DNA of 64,000 bases. Source: a virus. The stretch spans positions 14,932-78,931 of the IMG/VR virus record IMGVR_UViG_3300032286_000510; one strand, given 5' to 3'. Under the pieces are notes generated by a model. The model was not told the origin of the DNA. It did not search any database and saw nothing but the letters and a program-made list of their open reading frames with translations. Shown in pieces: positions 5,552 to 53,390 of the stretch (positions within the stretch are counted from its first letter, which is position 1; every line of letters starts with the position of its first letter). Position numbers and translations under genes: made by a program.

Positions 5552-5817
5552 TGGAACTTTCTACACAAAAACTGGAACGGATTTACAAAGAGTTGAAGGA
5601 GATTGTGAAGTTTGAAAACTCACTTCATATGATGGATATGACCCTCAATCAAACTGATGTGAATACTCTTGAAGAAGTGATTTCTATGATTGAAGACATC
5701 GTGAATTATGACCCAACACCTTATTATCTTTATGATAATTCTGGTGGGGAACCTCTTATGACTGCGAATGAAAGACTTTCTGCTGCTTGGCAAGAACACC
5801 TAAATCTTCATTCTTGA
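5551..5817 (+). CDS. Hypothetical protein
   Basis: Coupled ORF (TAATG). Confidence 0.6.
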   Translation: MELSTQKLERIYKELKEIVKFENSLHMMDMTLNQTDVNTLEEVISMIEDIVNYDPTPYYLYDNSGGEPLMTANERLSAAWQEHLNLHS

Positions 5818-5844
5818 TAAATACATAAAAAAGTATTTGTAAAG

Positions 5845-6489
5845 ATGAACTCACAAGACCTTCACAATCTTCAAGAAGCTTATATGGATGTTTATGGGGA
5901 AGAAACAAATTCAATGCGTCTTCCTGGAGAAACACGCAGACAATATAAAAAACATCAAGAAAGAAATCAACAATTACTAGATGATAAGGACAGTAGAAAA
6001 AAAGACAGAGCAAGAAATAAAAATCCATTATTTATTGGTAAAGATGGTAAAATAACTAAAACTCAAAGAGAAGAAACAGACCTTTACGACATCATTCTTT
6101 CACACTTACTTGATGAAGGTTATGCTGAAACACAAGAACAAGCAGAAGTCATTATGGTGAATATGAGTGAAGATTGGAGGGAAAGTATTGTGGATGTTTA
6201 TGGACTTGATGAAGAAATAACTCCAGAAAAAAGAGAACGATTTAAAAAAATTCTTTCGGTTAGACAATCAAATCAAGAAACTTACTTTGGTAAAAAAAGA
6301 CCAAGAAAAAGAGCAACCCCACCACAACCAGGAGCAGACTATTATAGACAAGGAATGACGCCAGATGATCGTTATAATAGAAGAGATCTTGCGAGAGAAG
6401 AAAATCCAGAAATACCAGAAGGTGAAGGCACAATAACCAAAAATCCAAAGAAACTTCGTAAACAAAAAGCAATGGGTGAGCACGGATGA
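5845..6489 (+). CDS. Late-expressed cyanophage protein (LQEAY..VY / DLYDIILSHLLDEGYA family), possible internal head protein
   Basis: ATAAATA late promoter-like 5817-5823; charged low-complexity protein. Confidence 0.65.
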   Translation: MNSQDLHNLQEAYMDVYGEETNSMRLPGETRRQYKKHQERNQQLLDDKDSRKKDRARNKNPLFIGKDGKITKTQREETDLYDIILSHLLDEGYAETQEQAEVIMVNMSEDWRESIVDVYGLDEEITPEKRERFKKILSVRQSNQETYFGKKRPRKRATPPQPGADYYRQGMTPDDRYNRRDLAREENPEIPEGEGTITKNPKKLRKQKAMGEHG

Positions 6490-7054: not shown

Positions 7055-7273
7055 ATGATTTACGACAAAAGTCTTTCTGAATACGAAAAAGACCTGAAAG
7101 AATCAAAAAAGAAGTATGAAAAACTTCTCAAACAAATGAAGAAAGCAAGGTCGGAGCATCAGTATTACAATCTTTATGATGAAGCAGAACTTCTTTATGA
7201 AGATATTGCCGACCTTCAACTACGAATTGCTGACCTCCGTAAGCAAAAGAAACTACAATCCAACTTGTTCTAA
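7055..7273 (+). CDS. Coiled-coil hypothetical protein
   Basis: Coupled ORF; 3' end overlaps convergent endonuclease. Confidence 0.6.
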   Translation: MIYDKSLSEYEKDLKESKKKYEKLLKQMKKARSEHQYYNLYDEAELLYEDIADLQLRIADLRKQKKLQSNLF

Positions 7274-7960
7274 TAAAACAAATCCTTTATGTTGTTTTCT
7301 TTTTCCATTTAGGGTATTCATAATGTTAGAACGATAAAGCATCTTATCTTTACAGAAAGCATTTAAATTATTAGTTTCGTAAATTTTAGATTCTTCAATT
7401 GAATATATTTTGTAATTGTATTTCAATTGTGAATCACTTTTTTTTCTTCTAGTTTCTTCTGATGGATTTTTATTTCTCTCACTTATTTTCTTTCTAGTTT
7501 CATCACTTATATTTTTCTTCGCTTCACTCATTTTTCTTTTGGTTTCTTCTGAAAGAGTTTTGCCTTTATTTGCTTCACTTATTTTTTTTCTGGTTTCTTT
7601 TGATGGATTTTTATTTGATTCACTAATTTTTTTTCTCGTTTCTTCTGAACGAGTTCTTTCTCTCTGCTTTCTTTTCCATTCATCACTCATTATAGCACCA
7701 GAAGAACCTTCACCACCATTAGTTCTATTAAGAAGAATACCTGTTCCTAAATCTTTTCTACCAAACACAGCAATCATATAGACCTCGTGCCTAAATGCTT
7801 CTTCTTCGGTTAAGTTCTGTTTTAGAATAAGTATTCTAGATTTATCTTTTGGTGGTTTGATGCCTTTATATCTTCTTCTATATGCCCTATTACCTTTTCC
7901 TTTGCCTATGTAATAGGGTGTCTTATCTTCACGCAAGAATGCGTAAGTGTAGTATTCCAT
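7253..7960 (-). CDS. GIY-YIG-like freestanding homing endonuclease with NUMOD3 repeats
   Basis: [19 protein letters not shown]-domain; repeated SEETRKKISE motifs; TATAAATA on minus strand at 7990-7983. Confidence 0.85.
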   Translation of the reverse strand: MEYYTYAFLREDKTPYYIGKGKGNRAYRRRYKGIKPPKDKSRILILKQNLTEEEAFRHEVYMIAVFGRKDLGTGILLNRTNGGEGSSGAIMSDEWKRKQRERTRSEETRKKISESNKNPSKETRKKISEANKGKTLSEETKRKMSEAKKNISDETRKKISERNKNPSEETRRKKSDSQLKYNYKIYSIEESKIYETNNLNAFCKDKMLYRSNIMNTLNGKRKQHKGFVLLEQVGL

Positions 7961-8056
7961 CTGCTTTACTTGTGGTTATATCTATTTATACAAGAAAGAG
8001 GTCAAAAATGACCCCTCTCTCTGCTTAAATAACCACAAGTAAGCAGTATTATTTAT
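7961..8056 (-). promoter_or_regulatory. Dual late promoter / antisense-hairpin cassette A upstream of endonuclease
   Basis: 14-bp inverted repeat 7966-7979/8029-8042 around a GGTCA hairpin and TATAAATA; second ATAAATA upstream. Confidence 0.65.
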
Positions 8057-8063
8057 TCCTATT

Positions 8064-8318
8064 ATGACTGACCTTTACCAAGAAATTTTGGAGTTTGATA
8101 AAATGAACCTTGATCTTGACCAACTGATTGAAGATTATGCTACTGACATCGTAGAAGGAATGGACCTTGATACTTTGGTTCAATTTGCCTATGATGTGAT
8201 TGTAGAGGGTCTAGAAGATATGAGTGTTAATGAGATTCTGGAACAAGTTGAAGAAAATGCTCCGCATCTTCTGGAAGAATTGGACGTGATTGTTCCAGAT
8301 GTTGAACCGGCACAGTAA
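8064..8318 (+). CDS. Acidic hypothetical protein (paralog of 17469..17681)
   Basis: YA..I...MD.D....AYD motif shared. Confidence 0.65.
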   Translation: MTDLYQEILEFDKMNLDLDQLIEDYATDIVEGMDLDTLVQFAYDVIVEGLEDMSVNEILEQVEENAPHLLEELDVIVPDVEPAQ

Positions 8319-8642
8319 AACAGCACAGACCCTCAAACCTGCTATAATTACTTCATAATCAATCAAAAACCTACGATGATTCGTGATTCTTCTGATCTTT
8401 ATCAAACTTCTTATGAACGTTTGAGAGACACTTGCCATGGTCTAATGAAACACTACAACCTTATGTTGTGTTGGCCTTCTAATAATGAAGTTGATAACTT
8501 ATTTTTTCAAGAGAAGTTTAATCAACACAAGTTCTACGAAGTTTGATTAGTCCTTGTGCCACTTCTTCTGGTGGCACACTGACCCTTGCCAAGATCCCCC
8601 CAAACGTGTTATGATGACTACATCAACAGTTAGAGGTGACAC

Positions 8643-8781
8643 GATGATTGAAACTTCTCTTATTCTTCACGATGATCTTGAGACTTTTGCTCAATATCTT
8701 GGTGTAGATTATGAAGACTACTACGAACTTTATCTTGGCATCGTTCAAGATGAAGAAGATGAAAGTCTAATTACTGTTTGA
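8643..8781 (+). CDS. Small acidic hypothetical protein
   Basis: GAGGTG RBS then ATG; after palindromic cassette at 8555. Confidence 0.5.
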
Positions 8782-8842
8782 TGATTATAGTCCTGGGATG
8801 ACTTAAAAAGCACCAAAACCCTTCACTTTACTTTCTTACATA

Positions 8843-9076
8843 ATGACTGCTCCTGCTTCTTTGATTGCTCTTGCTGCCGAACTCGTGAATACGAATCCTG
8901 CTGCTTCTCAACTGATTGTGAATCTTGGTAATGCTGAAACTGGTGATGAAGTGCTTGAAGCACTGAACACCTATGATGAATCCATTCTTGATTCTCTGGA
9001 ACCTGTTGATGAAGATGAAGATGAAGATGAGACTGATGAAGTTGAAGTTGATGAAACTGAACTCGTTGCTGTCTGA
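8843..9076 (+). CDS. Highly acidic hypothetical protein
   Basis: ORF with D/E tail, followed by hairpin. Confidence 0.65.
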   Translation: MTAPASLIALAAELVNTNPAASQLIVNLGNAETGDEVLEALNTYDESILDSLEPVDEDEDEDETDEVEVDETELVAV

Positions 9077-9088
9077 TAAGTAATATCA

Positions 9089-9114
9089 GGGAGAGAGAAA
9101 TCTCTTCCTTTCTT
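9089..9114 (+). terminator. Possible intrinsic terminator / processing hairpin before tRNA-Arg
   Basis: Imperfect GGGAGAGA-GAAA-TCTCTTCC hairpin followed by TTTCTT. Confidence 0.45.
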
Positions 9115-9188
9115 GTCTCAGTAGCTCAGATGGATAGAGCATCTCACTTCTAATGAGTAGGTCGGGGGTTCAAGTCCCTCCTGAGACG
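9115..9188 (+). tRNA. tRNA-Arg(UCU)
   Basis: Cloverleaf: GTCTCAG/CTGAGAC acceptor, anticodon loop CTTCTAA, GGGGG-TTCAAGT-CCCTC T-arm; CCA not encoded. Confidence 0.92.
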
Positions 9189-9211
9189 TTATACAAACAC
9201 CCTTCAAGACA

Positions 9212-9982
9212 ATGAAACTCAAACTATTAAGTGACCTTCACCTTGAGCACTATTGTGCTGGACAATACTTTGACCCAGGAGAAGGTGATGTTTTAGTTCT
9301 TGCTGGTGATATTCTTTGTGCCAAGCACTTGAAGAAGAATGGTTATCTTGCCGAAGTGTATGAAAAGTTCCTGACTGATTGTAGCAAGAACTATCAAAAG
9401 GTTCTCTATGTGAAAGGAAATCACGAGGCATATGGATATAATTACGAAGGAACACACAAAACCATTCAGGAGCATCTTCCTGATAACTTTCAGTTGATGG
9501 AGAATGATACAGTTACGATTGATAACTGGAACTTTATTGGTTTCACATTCTGGACTGATTTTCGTAATGAGAATCCATTAGAAATGATGTATGCTCAACA
9601 GTATATGAATGATTACAAAGTCATTCGCATTACTTCCAATTTCCGTAAGTTGAATACAAATGATACTCTTGGTTTTCATAAGAAGAGCAAGGAGTATCTT
9701 CTCAATCAACTTCAAGAATTGAATGAGAATGTATTCGTCATTAGTCATATGGCACCGAGTTATCAATCGGTTGCTCCTCAATTCAAGAACACGGAAAATG
9801 GTGCCTTTGTAAGTGATTTGGATGATTTGATTTTAAGTTATCCTCAAATCAAATACTGGTGTCATGGTCATGTCCATTCGTATTTTAACTATAATATTGG
9901 GGGATGTAAAATTCTATGTAATCCTGGTGGTTATCCTGGTCAGGACACAGGATTTAATCCAAATTTGATTTTGGGCATCTAG
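9212..9982 (+). CDS. Calcineurin-like metallophosphoesterase
   Basis: SDLHLE, LAGDI, GNHE, SH.AP, HGHVH motifs. Confidence 0.9.
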   Translation: MKLKLLSDLHLEHYCAGQYFDPGEGDVLVLAGDILCAKHLKKNGYLAEVYEKFLTDCSKNYQKVLYVKGNHEAYGYNYEGTHKTIQEHLPDNFQLMENDTVTIDNWNFIGFTFWTDFRNENPLEMMYAQQYMNDYKVIRITSNFRKLNTNDTLGFHKKSKEYLLNQLQELNENVFVISHMAPSYQSVAPQFKNTENGAFVSDLDDLILSYPQIKYWCHGHVHSYFNYNIGGCKILCNPGGYPGQDTGFNPNLILGI

Positions 9983-10031
9983 ATATAATGGGAATACTTA
10001 TTCTCAATTACAAACATTACTAAAAAGGTCG

Positions 10032-10508
10032 ATGGATTACTTAAAGATTGAACCAAATCAAACAATACTTGTTCTTAATGCTTCTTATGAACCTCTAAAT
10101 TTCATAAATTGGAGGAGAGCAGTTGTGTTGCTTATTAAGAACAAGGCACAGGCACTCGGCAAAAGAGTTATCCGTTTGGTTAATTACATTAAGATACCAT
10201 ACAAAAAACTAATGCAAAATAAACCATCACGAACAATGATTTATAAACGTGATGGTCACAAATGCCAGTATTGTGGTTCTACAAGAAATCTCACAATAGA
10301 TCACATCTTTCCAACTTCTAAAGGTGGTGGTAATACTTGGGAAAACCTAGTAGTTGCTTGTATGCCTTGTAATACAAGGAAAGGTGATAAACTATTGGAA
10401 GAAACCAATTTAATTCTTGATACTATTCCAAAGAAACCATTTAACAAAATGTTGTTTTCTTTGGATAGAACAGATGTTGATGAATGGAAAAAGTATTCTT
10501 ATAACTGA
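10032..10508 (+). CDS. HNH endonuclease (McrA-like)
   Basis: LVLNASYEPL; RDGHKCQYCG; TIDHIFP.SKGG...WENLVVAC..CN..KG. Confidence 0.9.
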   Translation: MDYLKIEPNQTILVLNASYEPLNFINWRRAVVLLIKNKAQALGKRVIRLVNYIKIPYKKLMQNKPSRTMIYKRDGHKCQYCGSTRNLTIDHIFPTSKGGGNTWENLVVACMPCNTRKGDKLLEETNLILDTIPKKPFNKMLFSLDRTDVDEWKKYSYN

Positions 10509-10527
10509 TAATTGAGAATTGTAATGA

Positions 10528-10632
10528 CTAAATACTAATGCCTTAGTTGGGTCGTATCTTCTCAGGTGAAAAGGGGCATTTCTGCCCCTTTTCTTGTATA
10601 AATACTAATACGACCCAATATAAAGAGCAGAA
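10528..10632 (+). promoter_or_regulatory. Dual late promoter / antisense-hairpin cassette B
   Basis: CTAAATA 10528; TTGGGTCGTAT 10547-10557 complementary to ATACGACCCAA 10608-10618; 11-bp hairpin 10568-10593; TATAAATA 10597-10604. Confidence 0.65.
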
Positions 10633-11307
10633 ATGAATTATTACACTTACGCATATTTGCGTGAAGATAGAACACCTTATTACATAGGAAAAGGTAATGG
10701 TAATAGGGCATATAGAAGAAGACATAAAGGCATCAAACCACCAAAAGATAAATCAAGAATAATATTCCTAAAACAGAACTTAACAGAAGAAGAGGCATTT
10801 AGACACGAAATCTATATGATTGCTGTGTTTGGTAGAAAGGATTTAGGAACTGGTATTCTTCACAACAGAACCGATGGTGGAGAGGGTGTTTCTGGTCTTA
10901 TTCATAATGAAGAAAGCAAAAGAAAAATGAGTAAAGCAAAGAAAGGTAAATCTCGGTCGGAAAAAACTAAAAGAAAAATAAGGGAAGCAGGTAAAGGCAG
11001 AACTCATTCAGACGAAAGTAAAAGAATAATAAGTGAAACAATGAAGGGCAGAAATCATTCAGAAGAAACTAAAAGAAAAATGAGTGAATCTAAACTAGGA
11101 AAACCTCGTAGCGAAGAAACTAAAAGAAAACTGAGTGAAGCAAATGTTGGTAAATCTCTTTCGGAAGAAACAAGAAAAAAATTAAGTGACCTTAATCGGG
11201 GTGAGAATAACGCACAATATGGTAAAAAATGGTGGAATAATAGAAAAGAGACTAAATTGTGTGTTAAGTGCCCTGGTGATGGTTGGGTTCTTGGAAGAAT
11301 AAAATAA
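10633..11307 (+). CDS. GIY-YIG-like freestanding homing endonuclease with NUMOD3 repeats
   Basis: N-terminal ~87 aa nearly identical to 7253..7960; [11 protein letters not shown] repeats. Confidence 0.85.
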
Positions 11308-11320
11308 TAAAGTATAGTGA

Positions 11321-11378
11321 TGTGCCAGTTGTAGCACTGGCACACTCAATCAGCACTGGTCCTAAAACCTGCTATAAT
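11321..11378 (+). promoter_or_regulatory. Palindromic early promoter cassette (consensus copy)
   Basis: TGTGCCAGTTGTAGCACTGGCACA, 28 bp, TG-C-TATAAT. Confidence 0.85.
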
Positions 11379-11399
11379 AAGAGGACACAAGCAAAGGAA

Positions 11400-11525
11400 A
11401 TGTCTACTCCAAATTGGCAACACAATTCAGGAAAACAAAAGAATACCAAAGGCACTTGTAAGGGCAAACTCAAATCCCGCAAACAATCACTTCAAGCACT
11501 CAAATCCAAACTGAATTTCAAATGA
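11400..11525 (+). CDS. Small basic cyanophage protein (MSTPNWQHNSGK)
   Basis: AAGG RBS + ATG 11400 after cassette. Confidence 0.55.
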   Translation: MSTPNWQHNSGKQKNTKGTCKGKLKSRKQSLQALKSKLNFK

Positions 11526-11917
11526 CTGAATCCACCAACGAAGTTCTTCATTACACTCAAGTTCTTTGCGAAGTTCTTCGTGAGAACTATAGGCAATATG
11601 GTATTGATTCTCACCGTCACTATATCACAAAAGGTGAGAATGTAGAGTATCACCAAAAACAAATTGATAGACTTTGTGAAGGTGAAGACCTTGCCGAATA
11701 TATCATTGATAAAGGTCGCAAATACTATAAGATTGTGATGAAGAATCACGGACAAAAACACGCACACTTGTTTGTTGATATGAATACTGGGGATTGTTAC
11801 AAGCCAGCATCTTGGAAAGCACCTGCCAAAGGTATTCGTTATAATCTTCTTGATGTTACATCCCGTGAGGAAATGTATAGGAGAGCAGACTGGGCAGGGT
11901 CGTACACTTACAAATAA
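11522..11917 (+). CDS. Conserved phage hypothetical protein
   Basis: GRKYYKIV...FVD..TGD.YKPASWKAPAKG.RYNL motif. Confidence 0.75.
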   Translation: MTESTNEVLHYTQVLCEVLRENYRQYGIDSHRHYITKGENVEYHQKQIDRLCEGEDLAEYIIDKGRKYYKIVMKNHGQKHAHLFVDMNTGDCYKPASWKAPAKGIRYNLLDVTSREEMYRRADWAGSYTYK

Positions 11918-11969
11918 TCAAGACCCAATCATTCTGGTATAAATAGAAATAGTTAGTATCCAATCAACT

Positions 11970-12470
11970 ATGAAACTTATACCAGAATATGAGGCATATA
12001 GTGTCACCGAAGACGGTGTAATTTATTCACACAAAAAACCAGGAGGAAAAGGAAAAGGCAAAATTGTTGATTATTCTTATAAAAGGCAACTAAAACCGCA
12101 AACCAACCACAAAGGATACTTAAATGTTATTTTGGAACAAGGTAGTTCTAATGCTAGAACTATGTCTATTCACAGAGCAGTAGCATTAGCATACATTCCA
12201 AATCCAAATAATTATGACACCATAAATCATATTGACGAAAACAAAACAAACAATCACGTATCAAATCTTGAATGGATGAGTAATGCTGACAACGTAGCAT
12301 ATTCACAAGCAAAAACAAGACTAATACAAACACCAGAGGGTGATAAAATAGAAATTACTAATTTATCAAAATGGTGTCGTGAAGTTTTAGGACTAAAATC
12401 ATCAGGGAATATGTTAAGGAGTTTGAGAAATCCTAATATGCCCTGTATGGGATATAAATTACTTAAATAA
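11970..12470 (+). CDS. HNH homing endonuclease (NUMOD4/HNH_3 type)
   Basis: IHRAVALAYIPNPNN..TINHIDENKTNNHVSNLEW; TATAAATA 11938-11945. Confidence 0.9.
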   Translation: MKLIPEYEAYSVTEDGVIYSHKKPGGKGKGKIVDYSYKRQLKPQTNHKGYLNVILEQGSSNARTMSIHRAVALAYIPNPNNYDTINHIDENKTNNHVSNLEWMSNADNVAYSQAKTRLIQTPEGDKIEITNLSKWCREVLGLKSSGNMLRSLRNPNMPCMGYKLLK

Positions 12471-12486
12471 CCTTCTCATATAACTG

Positions 12487-12678
12487 ATGTCAAACATTTC
12501 TTTCACCAAAGGTCTTGAAGTTTATTATGATGGAATGTATGGCATAGTTGATTTCATCTGCGAACAATACATCACAGTTTGTGTAAGAGTGATGGACCAC
12601 AAATCTAGAAATGTTTGTATATTAGTTTATCCAGACAGATTTAATTTAGTAAAACTAGCAAAAGAATCTGAAAAATGA
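12487..12678 (+). CDS. Cyanophage-type hypothetical protein
   Basis: G.V.FIC.QYITVC motif. Confidence 0.6.
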   Translation: MSNISFTKGLEVYYDGMYGIVDFICEQYITVCVRVMDHKSRNVCILVYPDRFNLVKLAKESEK

Positions 12679-12760
12679 ATCCTCATACAATCTCACTCAT
12701 AATGAGTCAATTATGGGTTCTTTTAATTCTTGTTATTGCTGTTTCTAATTTTCTAAATTG

Positions 12761-13099
12761 ATGAAAAAACTTCTATTACTTCTGTTGCTCATTCCTGCTC
12801 CTGTATTCGCAGCACCATTCAAGTATCAAACTCCTTGTATTTTAGAATCACAGAATGTTCTAACAGAAGATATTTGTACGGTAGTTGAAGTTCGTGAGAA
12901 AGGTGGAGCACTTAAATCACGCAACATCTATTCAAACAAGTTCTCATTGACAATCAAATCTTATTTCAGCAAGGAAAAAGGATTTATGACTTGGGATTCA
13001 TTTAACAAAATAGAATATCCTTGGCAATATAAGATTGACCCACTCAAAGGAAGTCTGGTGATGCCTGGAGTGTATCTCAAAGAAGTTTCTTGGGATTAA
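12761..13099 (+). CDS. Secreted/periplasmic hypothetical protein
   Basis: Signal peptide MKKLLLLLLLIPAPVFA. Confidence 0.65.
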   Translation: MKKLLLLLLLIPAPVFAAPFKYQTPCILESQNVLTEDICTVVEVREKGGALKSRNIYSNKFSLTIKSYFSKEKGFMTWDSFNKIEYPWQYKIDPLKGSLVMPGVYLKEVSWD

Positions 13100-13100
13100 A

Positions 13101-13727
13101 TTAAGAATAAAATAAAAAATACTTAACGTATTTTTCAGCAAACTCTTTATCAAAATAAGATTTCAAAATACCAAAAGCAGGATCATTTGTGGACATATAA
13201 TCATCAAATTTTTGATGGTGTTCTACGAATGATTCTTTTTTTGTGGCAGAATTCATTAAACACTTTTTGTATTGATGTAAGTAGCACTTTACCATAATTT
13301 GATATTCATTATAAAAACATTCACTGCTCTTTTTTATCCACAACTTTTTTGAGAAATACTTATTAAAATCATAAAACTTAGATGCGTTTGTTTTTGTGTT
13401 TGGAAACATTTCAAGATAAGACAAATAATCTTTATTATCACTAATTGGATGAAAATCTATTGCCCCAAAGTATTTTTTACTTCCAATCTGTAAATACTCT
13501 GTTCCAAATATAGGAGTTTCATAATGATGATTTGGATATATGACTAAGGACTCTGCTTGAAACTTTTGTTCAACATTTAATTCACACACTCTTATACGTT
13601 TACAATAATCAGACTTAAAAAGATATGATTTTAACTTAACTGAATTATTATTAGATGTCCTTTCTACCCAAATTGGAACTTCGGTTGAAGATAAATCTAA
13701 AAACTCTTTGAGTATATCTTTTAACAT
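13101..13727 (-). CDS. Ferredoxin-dependent bilin reductase (PebA/PebS-like, divergent)
   Basis: VIYP....TPIFG.E, AIDFHP, FYD.NKYFS, FDDYM...DPAFGILKSYF..EFA..Y...FLF motifs. Confidence 0.8.
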   Translation of the reverse strand: MLKDILKEFLDLSSTEVPIWVERTSNNNSVKLKSYLFKSDYCKRIRVCELNVEQKFQAESLVIYPNHHYETPIFGTEYLQIGSKKYFGAIDFHPISDNKDYLSYLEMFPNTKTNASKFYDFNKYFSKKLWIKKSSECFYNEYQIMVKCYLHQYKKCLMNSATKKESFVEHHQKFDDYMSTNDPAFGILKSYFDKEFAEKYVKYFLFYS

Positions 13728-13874
13728 TCAATCTATCAATATTTTTAACTTAACCTATTTAATACTAATACTGCTTGTGCCAGTTGTAGCACTGGCACAC
13801 TAAACGGGCACAGACCCCAATCTGTGGTATTCTAAGAGGGTGGTTGAGAGACCACCCTTTCGTTCAACAAACAA

Positions 13875-14108
13875 ATGATTCTTGACGTTTTTCATTATAC
13901 TACTTCCCGTTGGGATTGGCAGTCTGGTGATGTAAACCAAATGTGGATTCAAGAGATTGAAGAAGCACCTGATGTTTATAGGTACGTTGCTGTTGCTTAC
14001 AATCCTCGCAAGGATTCAAGTATGGTGATGTCTAATCCTCGTGGGTATTTTGATACTCTACAATGGGTTCAAAAGTTCTGTGGTTCCTTCTCCCTTCTTC
14101 CTAACTGA
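13875..14108 (+). CDS. Hypothetical protein
   Basis: ORF after cassette at 13776. Confidence 0.6.
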   Translation: MILDVFHYTTSRWDWQSGDVNQMWIQEIEEAPDVYRYVAVAYNPRKDSSMVMSNPRGYFDTLQWVQKFCGSFSLLPN

Positions 14109-14330
14109 TTATGATTTACGACATTACTATTGAGTTTAGGGATGGAACTGTTGATAAGTTTCAACGCAAAAGTAATATCAAACCTATCAATAGTATAAAA
14201 CTCAACGATAAAATTGCTAATGAAATCTTTCCACGAGAGTGGAAAGAAATCTCTTCCAAACCTGTTTATTGATTATGACTTTCACTTTTCCTCGTGTCTC
14301 TGCTGGTCTCTACGAAGTTCAAAAGAATTC

Positions 14331-14430
14331 ATAAATAATGATGCTTATGTGTGGTTACTAAGCAAAAGATTAGAGGCAGAAATGCCTCTTTTCTTGTATA
14401 AATAGATATAACCACACATAAAGTAGAACT
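14331..14430 (+). promoter_or_regulatory. Dual late promoter / antisense-hairpin cassette C
   Basis: ATAAATA 14331; TTATGTGTGGTTA 14345-14357 complementary to TAACCACACATAA 14409-14421; hairpin 14372-14389; TATAAATA 14397-14404. Confidence 0.65.
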
Positions 14431-15219
14431 ATGGAAACTCCAAAGGAGTATTACTATACCTATTATTCTTATGAAGAATGGGGTAGAGGATATATTGGCA
14501 GTAGAGGTTGCTATTGCTTACCAGAAGAAGACATAAGATATTTTGGTTCATTCAGGGATAAAACATTCAAACCAACTCAAAAAATAATACTCAAAGATGA
14601 TTATGCTACAAGAGAAGACGCATATGTTGATGAGATTATTTTACACGACTTTTATGATGTAGGTAATAATCCTCATTTTGCCAATAGAGCAAAGGCAACT
14701 TCTGCAAAGTTTTGTTTATCCAAAGAACAATCAAAAGAAATTGGATTGAAAAGTAAAGAACTTGGTATTGGTTTATTTTCACTAACAAAAGAACAAAGAA
14801 TAGAAAATGGCAGAAAAGGTGGTCCAATAGGTGGAAAGATTGTGGGGGCAGAAAATAAAAGACTTGGACGTGGGATATTTGGACTATCTCCACAACAAAA
14901 AAGTGAAATTGCCAAAAAAGCAAATAAACTGTCAAGTAAAAATACAAAAAAAGGAAGGAAACCAAAACCACCTCTTCTTGAACCAGAAGAACTAAAAAAT
15001 TGTAAAATTAAAAACGGAAAAAAATCTGGTATGAAACACAAAGAAAACAAAACAGGTGTTTGTGGAATATCACCGGAAGAACATTCAAAAAGAGCATCTA
15101 TCACAAATAGTCAAAAGTGGAGATGTCTTGAAACCGGACACATTAGTAATGCCGGAGGATTGTCTAAATATCAAAAATCAAAAGGGATAGATACTTCATT
15201 GAGAGAAAGATTGGAATAA
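14431..15219 (+). CDS. GIY-YIG-like (Seg-like) homing endonuclease
   Basis: YYYTYYSYEEWGRGYIGSR, YFGS, E..LH..YDV..NPHFAN; basic Gly-rich repeats. Confidence 0.8.
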   Translation: METPKEYYYTYYSYEEWGRGYIGSRGCYCLPEEDIRYFGSFRDKTFKPTQKIILKDDYATREDAYVDEIILHDFYDVGNNPHFANRAKATSAKFCLSKEQSKEIGLKSKELGIGLFSLTKEQRIENGRKGGPIGGKIVGAENKRLGRGIFGLSPQQKSEIAKKANKLSSKNTKKGRKPKPPLLEPEELKNCKIKNGKKSGMKHKENKTGVCGISPEEHSKRASITNSQKWRCLETGHISNAGGLSKYQKSKGIDTSLRERLE

Positions 15220-15660: not shown

Positions 15661-15683
15661 TGTATAAATAAAATACATTTCTT

Positions 15684-15754
15684 GCCCTATAAGCATTGTG
15701 GTGATGCAGCAGTTTTGTAAACTGCAGAGAACAGTTCAATTCTGTTATGGGGCT
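15684..15754 (+). tRNA. tRNA-Thr(UGU)
   Basis: GCCCTAT/ATGGGGC acceptor, GCAT/ATGC D-stem, GCAGT-TTTGTAA-ACTGC anticodon arm, AACAG-TTCAATT-CTGTT T-arm; TATAAATA at 15663. Confidence 0.8.
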
Positions 15755-15850
15755 CTTAATCTTATAGTGATGTGCCAGTTGTAGGACTGGATGATAACAC
15801 CCTGAATAGCACCTAAAACGTGCTATAATAACTTTGTAATGATTCAACCT

Positions 15851-53361: not shown

Positions 53362-53390
53362 ATCTAAATAATTAATAAAAGGACATTATT

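Follow-up and report, generated by a model that had tools for sequence, protein, structure and literature searches.

A portable leader with complementary arms around a terminator and a late promoter box precedes homing endonuclease genes of T4-like cyanophages and may restrict their expression to late infection

Why should several nuclease genes of one cyanophage begin behind the same leader, with two ends complementary to each other and a terminator-like hairpin and a promoter box in between? The question arises from a 64,000-nucleotide (nt) stretch of viral DNA, positions 14,932 to 78,931 of record IMGVR_UViG_3300032286_000510, which is part of a 78.9-kb IMG/VR cyanomyovirus contig and is called the window here. 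A sequence-only reading had pointed out three copies of the module (cassettes A, B, and C), each before a presumed GIY-YIG nuclease gene, and the sequence bears out both the positions and the order of parts. The module spans about 100 conserved bases directly before the nuclease genes. Each copy consists of a box [A/C]TAAATA (P1), 5 nt, a 5′ arm with an alternative hairpin fold (H1), a GC-rich hairpin with TTTCTTG, a second box TATAAATA (P2), 5 nt, a 3′ arm, 2 to 11 nt, and the ATG of the nuclease (Table 1). P2 is the full TATAAATA in every cassette and is invariably located between the arms; in the window copies it lies 22 to 28 nt from the ATG. The 15-mer junction TTTCTTGTATAAATA occurs exactly three times in the window, and five or more near-matches were seen in none of 100 shuffles. 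A simple terminator scan called the hairpin of cassette C and not those of A and B, which were missed because the A-tract pairs with the U-tract and extends the stem past the scanner's tail rule.

To find relatives, we searched IMG/VR with the exact junction, ran a covariance model (R1) built from the family, and ran a third scan keyed solely on P2 and the leader end, which is blind to the upstream half, where P1 lies. Pooled, the three scans gave 162 distinct cassettes in IMG/VR cyanophage contigs; loci are given below by number (L004 and so on). The covariance model also found six cassettes in S-SRM01, a freshwater phage in culture; in S-PM2 and Sf-CH5 it found none. A blastn search of cultured phages with cassette A, a short and variable query, returned nothing useful, and a search of Rfam gave no matching family for the cassette. 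An Rfam match of cassette A to mir-627 was discarded, being sub-threshold and reflecting the long-hairpin shape alone.

When an RNA reads through the whole module, its two arms form a helix of 16 to 17 base pairs (bp) with one conserved bulge. This helix encloses the terminator and P2 and reaches from the sixth nt after P1 to the purine tract before the ATG. It is present in the minimum free energy fold of all 54 cassettes that were folded, to which it adds about -17 kcal/mol, and the read-through RNAs of A, B, and C fold with z-scores of -8.9, -6.3, and -7.6 against shuffles. The purine tract lies within the helix, which ends 2 to 11 nt before the AUG and leaves the AUG unpaired. By itself, the leader of an RNA started at P2 is unstructured. 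The complementary segments named in the sequence-only reading are exact reverse complements, of 14 nt in A, 11 nt in B, and 13 nt in C; the pairing thus stands, and the length of 11 to 14 nt falls short of the full helix, which runs into the 5′ arm of H1. H1 takes its 5′ strand from the 5′ end of the arm, so it cannot coexist with the long helix.

Does evolution preserve this pairing? RNAalifold on a plain MAFFT alignment overlooked the long helix because the variable arms were misaligned, and in its place we used a model-based alignment of 66 distinct cassettes together with raw reverse-complement matching. The alignment is itself fitted to the structure; the raw exact reverse complements, 9 to 14 nt per cassette, are independent of it. 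In the alignment, 93.8% of the arm cells pair, against 41 to 53% when the partners are slid by one to three columns. As many as 398 cells have changed on both sides, and double changes occur at all 12 pairs of the core helix. The covariation suspected from three copies, and proposed as a check in leaders of cyanophage endonuclease homologs, is therefore strong and generalizes to the 162 cassettes. G.U pairs number 48 and A.C only 4, which identifies the pairing partner as coding-strand RNA rather than DNA or an opposite transcript. Cognate arms form duplexes of -21.5 ± 1.9 kcal/mol and non-cognate arms of -9.2 ± 4.0 kcal/mol (means). By duplex energy, the arm sequences fall into about 17 cross-reacting classes, with pairing kept throughout. 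The terminator stem covaries across the family as well.

The module is not tied to one kind of nuclease. It precedes at least four GIY-YIG-like clades, HNH-like types, and a few unassigned open reading frames (ORFs), and its target genes encode DNA endonucleases of 150 to 330 amino acids (aa) with NUMOD3, GIY-YIG, or HNH features. An identical leader in an identical context stands before different nucleases (L004 versus L076/L118 versus L095). At L100:4391-4530 there is a nuclease-loss scar: the leader is intact, with arms identical to those of L004, and the nuclease gene has been cleanly deleted. At the joint, 8 nt of the former ORF remain (its ATG now ATT), followed by the downstream gene, which now sits behind P2 and the mask. 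Identical leaders before different nucleases, together with this scar, show that the module is common to several nuclease families and swappable between them, as the sequence-only reading had supposed.

We think it fairly probable that the module serves free-standing homing endonuclease genes of T4-like cyanophages as a portable, insulated unit for late expression. Transcription arriving from upstream genes, or from P1, would reach the intrinsic terminator. Any RNA that reads through would carry both arms and fold, burying the leader with its purine tract, the likely ribosome site, so that the nuclease would go untranslated. P2 lies in the loop of the helix, and RNAs started there would lack the 5′ arm and be translatable, giving nuclease only late. 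Many units would then end in an exit promoter of their own, either a TATAAT element or a TAAATA box over the stop codon, limiting harm to downstream genes. Promoter activity, terminator efficiency, and the translation block are what we infer from sequence. Because RNAs with both arms fold over the P2 leader, the topology is explained without any action in trans.

Two further observations support such a mask in cis. The first is a plain arm-TATAAATA-arm-ATG form in Synechococcus phage Sf-CH5 (PV340852.1; L124:1420-1497), where GTAGTCTGGGGA, TATAAATA, and TCCCCAGACTAC are followed by the ATG of a relative of nuclease A (73% identity in the N-terminal domain); this looks like a mask without P1 or terminator. 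The second is precedent. A nested late promoter with an RNA mask is established for T4 I-TevI and Aeh1 mobE, and the same mask has been proposed for I-TevII, I-TevIII, and segB and for the T4 genes e, soc, and 49 (PMC2988022, PMC3014915). As in those T-even cases, TATAAATA lies directly upstream of the nuclease gene of a selfish element with expression predicted to be restricted to late infection; the ribosome site is paired within a helix whose 5′ strand comes from upstream of the late start, and late transcripts would be free of it. The cyanophage leader differs in three respects. Its helix is split by a covarying intrinsic terminator; a second late-promoter box is fixed 5 nt before the 5′ strand, which can self-fold as a hairpin; and several nuclease families have the whole leader in common, as a conserved cassette with about 17 arm classes. 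In the window, an TATAAATA box at 11938 precedes the HNH_3/NUMOD4 gene at 11970, which has no leader mask (z = -0.7).

Several features weigh against this account. The terminator separates the arms, so few transcripts may hold both, and the mask would be limited to the read-through fraction. A mask in cis requires neither P1 nor H1, yet P1 is kept at a fixed distance and H1 covaries; nor does it explain why the 5′ arm starts where an RNA from P1 is predicted to start. Cassette A is inverted and has no co-directional upstream gene, and its arms are perfect nonetheless. Finally, the helix stops short of the start codon, which stays free.

We therefore looked closely at the upstream half of the cassette. 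P1 is present as TAAATA in all 66 cassettes of the covariance model, including 10 without the exact junction, and at the expected distance in 80 of the 81 cassettes sampled on P2 and the leader end alone. The sole copy without it, L024:3-95, has TCAAAAAAA in place of P1 and retains arms, terminator, and P2; this contig (IMGVR_UViG_3300007735_000887) carries seven cassettes in 14 kb. The degeneracy of P1 is N[A/C]TAAATA, with A or C before the box and the base before that free. Boxes 15 to 37 nt before large structural ORFs of the same window are equally degenerate (TATAAATA, GATAAATA, CATAAATA, and TCTAAATA), and CTAAATA also lies ahead of the structural ORFs at 53363 and 54854. In T4 the late promoter box spans -13 to -6, and the late consensus of Aeh1 is a/gCTAAATA (PMC2988020); for cyanophages it is NATAAATA (PMC2984593). 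After both P1 and P2 come four free bases, T, and a purine. The first covarying base of the 5′ arm coincides with the predicted P1 +1 in 62 of 65 cassettes, the box lying 5 nt ahead. H1 covaries too: 91.5% of its cells pair, against at most 47% when slid, with 35 double changes in few variant classes. Its loop displays the recognition sequence of the arm, complementary to the initiation region of the target. The RNA from P1 to the terminator folds as two hairpins with a z-score of about -5. A conserved small ORF in this RNA was considered and rejected, as the ATG at the start of H1 is not conserved. Judged by these features, P1 probably fires late and gives a short terminated RNA, and a product of about 55 nt from P1 to the terminator, as the sequence-only reading had envisaged, is plausible.

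This leads to the strongest alternative, an antisense RNA acting in trans. A late transcript of 54 to 60 nt, from the first base of H1 to the terminator, would present the recognition sequence in its loop and pair with the first ~16 nt of the P2 mRNA, lowering its translation or stability. This would control the dosage of a nuclease that may be toxic while the number of genome copies rises, much as in IS10 RNA-OUT/RNA-IN. The antisense module would also form the 3′ ends of upstream mRNAs whose transcription stops at this terminator. There is precedent among mobile elements: both IS10 RNA-OUT/RNA-IN and the c4 RNA of phages P1 and P7, which acts on icd-ant, rely on a small structured RNA whose loop base-pairs with an mRNA of the same element, at its 5′ end or ribosome site. 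The c4 RNA lies upstream of its target on the same strand and is processed from their common transcript, and between phages P1 and P7 the RNA and its target have changed in step; RNA-OUT, for its part, is transcribed from the opposite strand as a true antisense RNA. The small RNA of the cassette, by contrast, is only predicted.

Much in the cassette agrees with such an RNA: the near-universal P1, its degeneracy matching both the structural-gene boxes and known late promoters of the T4 family, the same start context after P1 and P2, the covarying arm that begins at the predicted +1, the covarying H1 with the arm exposed in its loop, the two-hairpin fold of the short RNA next to an unstructured P2 leader, and the large difference in energy between cognate and non-cognate duplexes. 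Other facts argue against it. In 22 of 47 cases the upstream ORF ends in the TAA of P1, P1 falls within 10 nt of that stop in 36 of 47, and TAAATA recurs at the right ends of some units; P1 may partly mark where units recombine into late-promoter/stop sites. One natural cassette has no P1 and everything else intact. The few classes of H1 variation imply few independent events. The innermost covarying pair is formed by the fifth nt after the P2 box, the -1 position of P2, in 57 of 65 cassettes, so one covarying pair lies outside the predicted P2 mRNA; this points weakly to pairing in cis, since start sites can shift by one base. And the copies of one genome show no greater orthogonality than pairs drawn at random, their non-cognate mean being -8.5 kcal/mol within genomes against -9.2 overall: A pairs with C at -15 kcal/mol, and the two copies in L033 likewise cross-pair. 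We hold the trans-acting RNA to be possible, though the less probable account. It is compatible with the mask in cis, which the sequence-only reading had named as its refuting case, I-TevI-like pairing confined to read-through transcripts; the cis helix is there in every read-through fold, and the two could act side by side. Other functions suggested by the sequence-only reading fared worse. With A and C cross-pairing, copy-specific control is not supported; the targets are endonucleases of 150 to 330 aa and not the small toxins of a type I toxin-antitoxin system, as an antitoxin-like role would have it; and we found nothing in support of a guide or cofactor.

Could the repeats instead work as DNA, as an invertible promoter segment, a cruciform, or a recombination site around the terminator and promoter? 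Inverted repeats of 11 to 17 bp do flank a promoter-bearing segment, and TAAATA boxes do lie at unit borders. We rejected this very improbable reading on the asymmetry between G.U and A.C pairs, which is strand-specific and fits RNA; in addition, a conserved bulge is accommodated in the helix, just about 50 bp lie between the arms, and this inner segment is inverted in none of the 162 cassettes. That the arms are operators bound by the nuclease itself, as I-TevI binds one over its own late promoter (PMC2988022), is extremely improbable even with a 3′ arm that begins at the P2 start site, because arms and nuclease families assort independently (identical arms and context before different families, unrelated arms before the similar nucleases A and B) and a site for a protein would not be expected to show reverse-complement covariation that includes G.U pairs.

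Has this leader been seen before? A close description is that of "fractured gene" loci in GOS data, where hairpins enclose TATAAATA before free-standing endonucleases (Dassa et al. 2009, PMC2677866). Those loci, too, are metagenomic, come from phages, and hold GIY-YIG nucleases among others; a pair of complementary motifs closes into a stem with a late box inside, and the hairpin is retained after loss of the nuclease gene, as at L100. The paper by Dassa et al. describes no internal terminator, upstream promoter box, alternative hairpin, or family-wide covariation. Their hairpins, which we likened by description and not by sequence, are probably the same or a sister module, and they add to the case for a mask in cis. 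In cyanophage S-PM2, CfrI is an opposite-strand non-coding RNA of about 225 nt tied to the F-CphI endonuclease gene (PMC2984593). Like the predicted RNA of the cassette, CfrI is a non-coding RNA associated with a homing endonuclease gene of a cyanophage; the F-CphI leader (AJ630128.1, L122:170-245) consists of the psbA terminator and, directly after it, TATAAATA, without complementary arms. The core mask is a known device, and in the literature searched we did not find described a terminator-split, portable leader with two late-promoter boxes that spans nuclease families with many arm classes.

The features of the module in the window, and of a fourth copy that the covariance model found on the same contig, are collected in Table 1.

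Table 1. Cassette parts and nuclease genes in the window and on the same contig
Feature	Position	Strand	Description
Cassette A, P1	8050..8057	-	AATAAATA, late-promoter-like box; predicted +1 is G at 8044
Cassette A, 5′ arm	8029..8044	-	GCTTACTTGTGGTTAT; first 5-6 nt alternatively form H1 with 8022-8027; from folds and covariation
Cassette A, terminator-like hairpin	7991..8015	-	Stem 8015-8009/8004-7998, then TTTCTTG; from fold and family covariation
Cassette A, P2	7983..7990	-	TATAAATA, consensus late promoter box; predicted +1 is A at 7977
Cassette A, 3′ arm	7963..7979	-	ATAACCACAAGTAAAGC; 5′ leader of nuclease mRNA; ends 2 nt short of ATG at 7960
Cassette B, P1	10527..10534	+	ACTAAATA; predicted +1 is G at 10540
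Cassette B, 5′ arm	10540..10557	+	GCCTTAGTTGGGTCGTAT; weak H1 with 10561-10567; from folds
Cassette B, terminator-like hairpin	10568..10596	+	GAAAAGGGGCA / TGCCCCTTTTC plus TTG; from fold
Cassette B, P2	10597..10604	+	TATAAATA; predicted +1 is A at 10610
Cassette B, 3′ arm and leader	10608..10628	+	ATACGACCCAAT...AAAGAGC; ATG at 10633; from folds
Cassette C, P1	14330..14337	+	CATAAATA; predicted +1 is G at 14343
Cassette C, 5′ arm	14343..14358	+	GCTTATGTGTGGTTAC; H1 with 14359-14363; from folds
Cassette C, terminator-like hairpin	14372..14396	+	AGAGGCA / TGCCTCT plus TTTCTTG; from terminator scan and fold
Cassette C, P2	14397..14404	+	TATAAATA; predicted +1 is A at 14410
Cassette C, 3′ arm and leader	14408..14424	+	ATAACCACACATAAAGT; ATG at 14431; from folds
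Fourth cassette, same contig	G000:C1:13751-13886 (locus L128:1501-1636)		About 1.05-1.2 kb upstream of window position 1; arms AACTGACTGCA / TGCAGTCAGTT; found by covariance model
Homing endonuclease gene A	7253..7960	-	235 aa; GIY-YIG-type N-terminus and NUMOD3 (Pfam); phrog_314; inverted relative to all neighbours
Homing endonuclease gene B	10633..11307	+	224 aa; GIY-YIG-type N-terminus, five NUMOD3 repeats
Nuclease-like gene C	14431..15219	+	262 aa; S-PM2 p178 homologue with GIY-YIG-like motif pattern; relatives with NUMOD3
Fourth-cassette gene (L128)			242 aa; nuclease-like, begins MQPRIYTYKITF...; phrog_314

What do the genes behind the leader encode? Nucleases A and B had been called nearly identical in their nuclease domains; they are similar, with 75% identity over the first 110 residues. 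Both have the motif Y-x-Y, 10 aa, and YIG, followed by invariant R25, E59, and N78, and genes of these types match phrog_314 and, by profile, GIY-YIG proteins in the PDB with an E value of 0.0017. Their motifs make the GIY-YIG identity of A and B well supported. For gene C, which was also presumed to be a GIY-YIG nuclease, support is weak. It is 40% identical to S-PM2p178 by tblastn (in S-PM2, the ORF following F-CphI), and a relative of it matches NUMOD3 at 3e-15. The best Foldseek matches of its predicted structure (predicted local distance difference test score 73) are UvrC GIY-YIG domains, and these are weak, with an E value of 0.5 and template modelling scores of 0.4 to 0.48. Sequence searches of the PDB with B and with C gave no matches, and no support came from comparing, with hhalign, the profiles of clades C and D with that of the GIY-YIG clade recognized by Pfam. 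One further clade behind the leader exceeds the Pfam cut-off for PF01541. The region is dense in homing endonuclease genes, two more of which lie in the window at 10032-10508 (HNH) and 11970-12470 (HNH_3 plus NUMOD4).

The cassettes also mark places where nuclease genes come and go. At 5816-5847, the window holds a hot-spot allele without cassette or nuclease: GATAAATA lies directly 3′ of the upstream TGA and 21 nt before the ATG of ORF 5845-6489 (MNSQDLHN...). Before the homologous gene, L004, L033, and L118 carry three different nuclease units. The idea that P1 is the native promoter of the invaded locus was set aside as only suggestive, because the gene upstream of the cassette-less allele (5816-5845) is unlike that of L004. 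At the fourth cassette, the TGA of the upstream ORF adjoins P1. A TAAATA box lies over the nuclease stop codon, or at most 14 nt before it, in 11 of 53 units (L004:4205-4232, the first-cassette unit of L033 with cassette start 719, L118, and 8 further loci). The presence of TAAATA boxes on both sides of some units suggests that they serve as junctions when units move. Transfer RNA genes are found nearby: the window has tRNA-Arg(UCU) at 9114-9189 and tRNA-Thr(UGU) at 15684-15755, the latter 14 nt after a TATAAATA box (15663-15670), and in L142 and L201 the cassette begins directly after a tRNA gene.

Another kind of element follows the stop codons of nuclease genes, in the window at 11316-11380 and 15770-15830 and at many other loci, for example L128 (after 2346), L099, L046, L032, and L123. 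These exit elements are conserved, and one class consists of ggacacttgaNNaactggcaca, then a hairpin, then tataat; the window variant is tagtgatgtgccagttgtagNactgg...ctaaaacNtgctataata. With their terminal TATAAT, they look like early promoters that would restart downstream transcription, similar to the PeSL cassettes of T4-type phages, in which a stem-loop is combined with an early sigma-70 promoter and for which modular shuffling has been proposed (PMC2839356, PMC4122927). PeSLs resemble the leader in being short conserved regulatory cassettes that flank variable genes. However, both boxes of the leader are of the late type, and the split leader mask is absent from PeSLs. The leader itself is accordingly not a PeSL, and PeSL-like parts occur here only as the exit elements after nuclease genes.

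How selfish nucleases avoid harming their phage is, to our knowledge, understood from only a few T-even cases, and we know of no trans-acting small RNA shown so far in T4-like phages. The leader combines five elements in one compact unit, namely a stop/late box, a 5′ arm, a terminator, a nested late promoter, and a masked leader, and it is reused by many nuclease genes of freshwater and marine cyanophages. Its 162 natural variants, in which pairing is kept while sequence changes, are a ready set of compensatory mutants for the study of RNA masks. Since S-SRM01 is in culture and carries six cassettes, bench work can settle whether T4-like phages use trans-acting small RNAs. The leaders further flag insertion hot spots as well as scars of nuclease gain and loss, and in this way aid the annotation of cyanophage genomes. 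Tentatively, each cassette might encode a late antisense RNA of about 55 nt, a programmable same-strand repressor that would compensate the dosage of its own nuclease mRNA. If this is true, T4-like phages would have their first known trans-acting regulatory RNA system, one of about 17 natural specificities that at least five endonuclease families carry as a plug-in leader.

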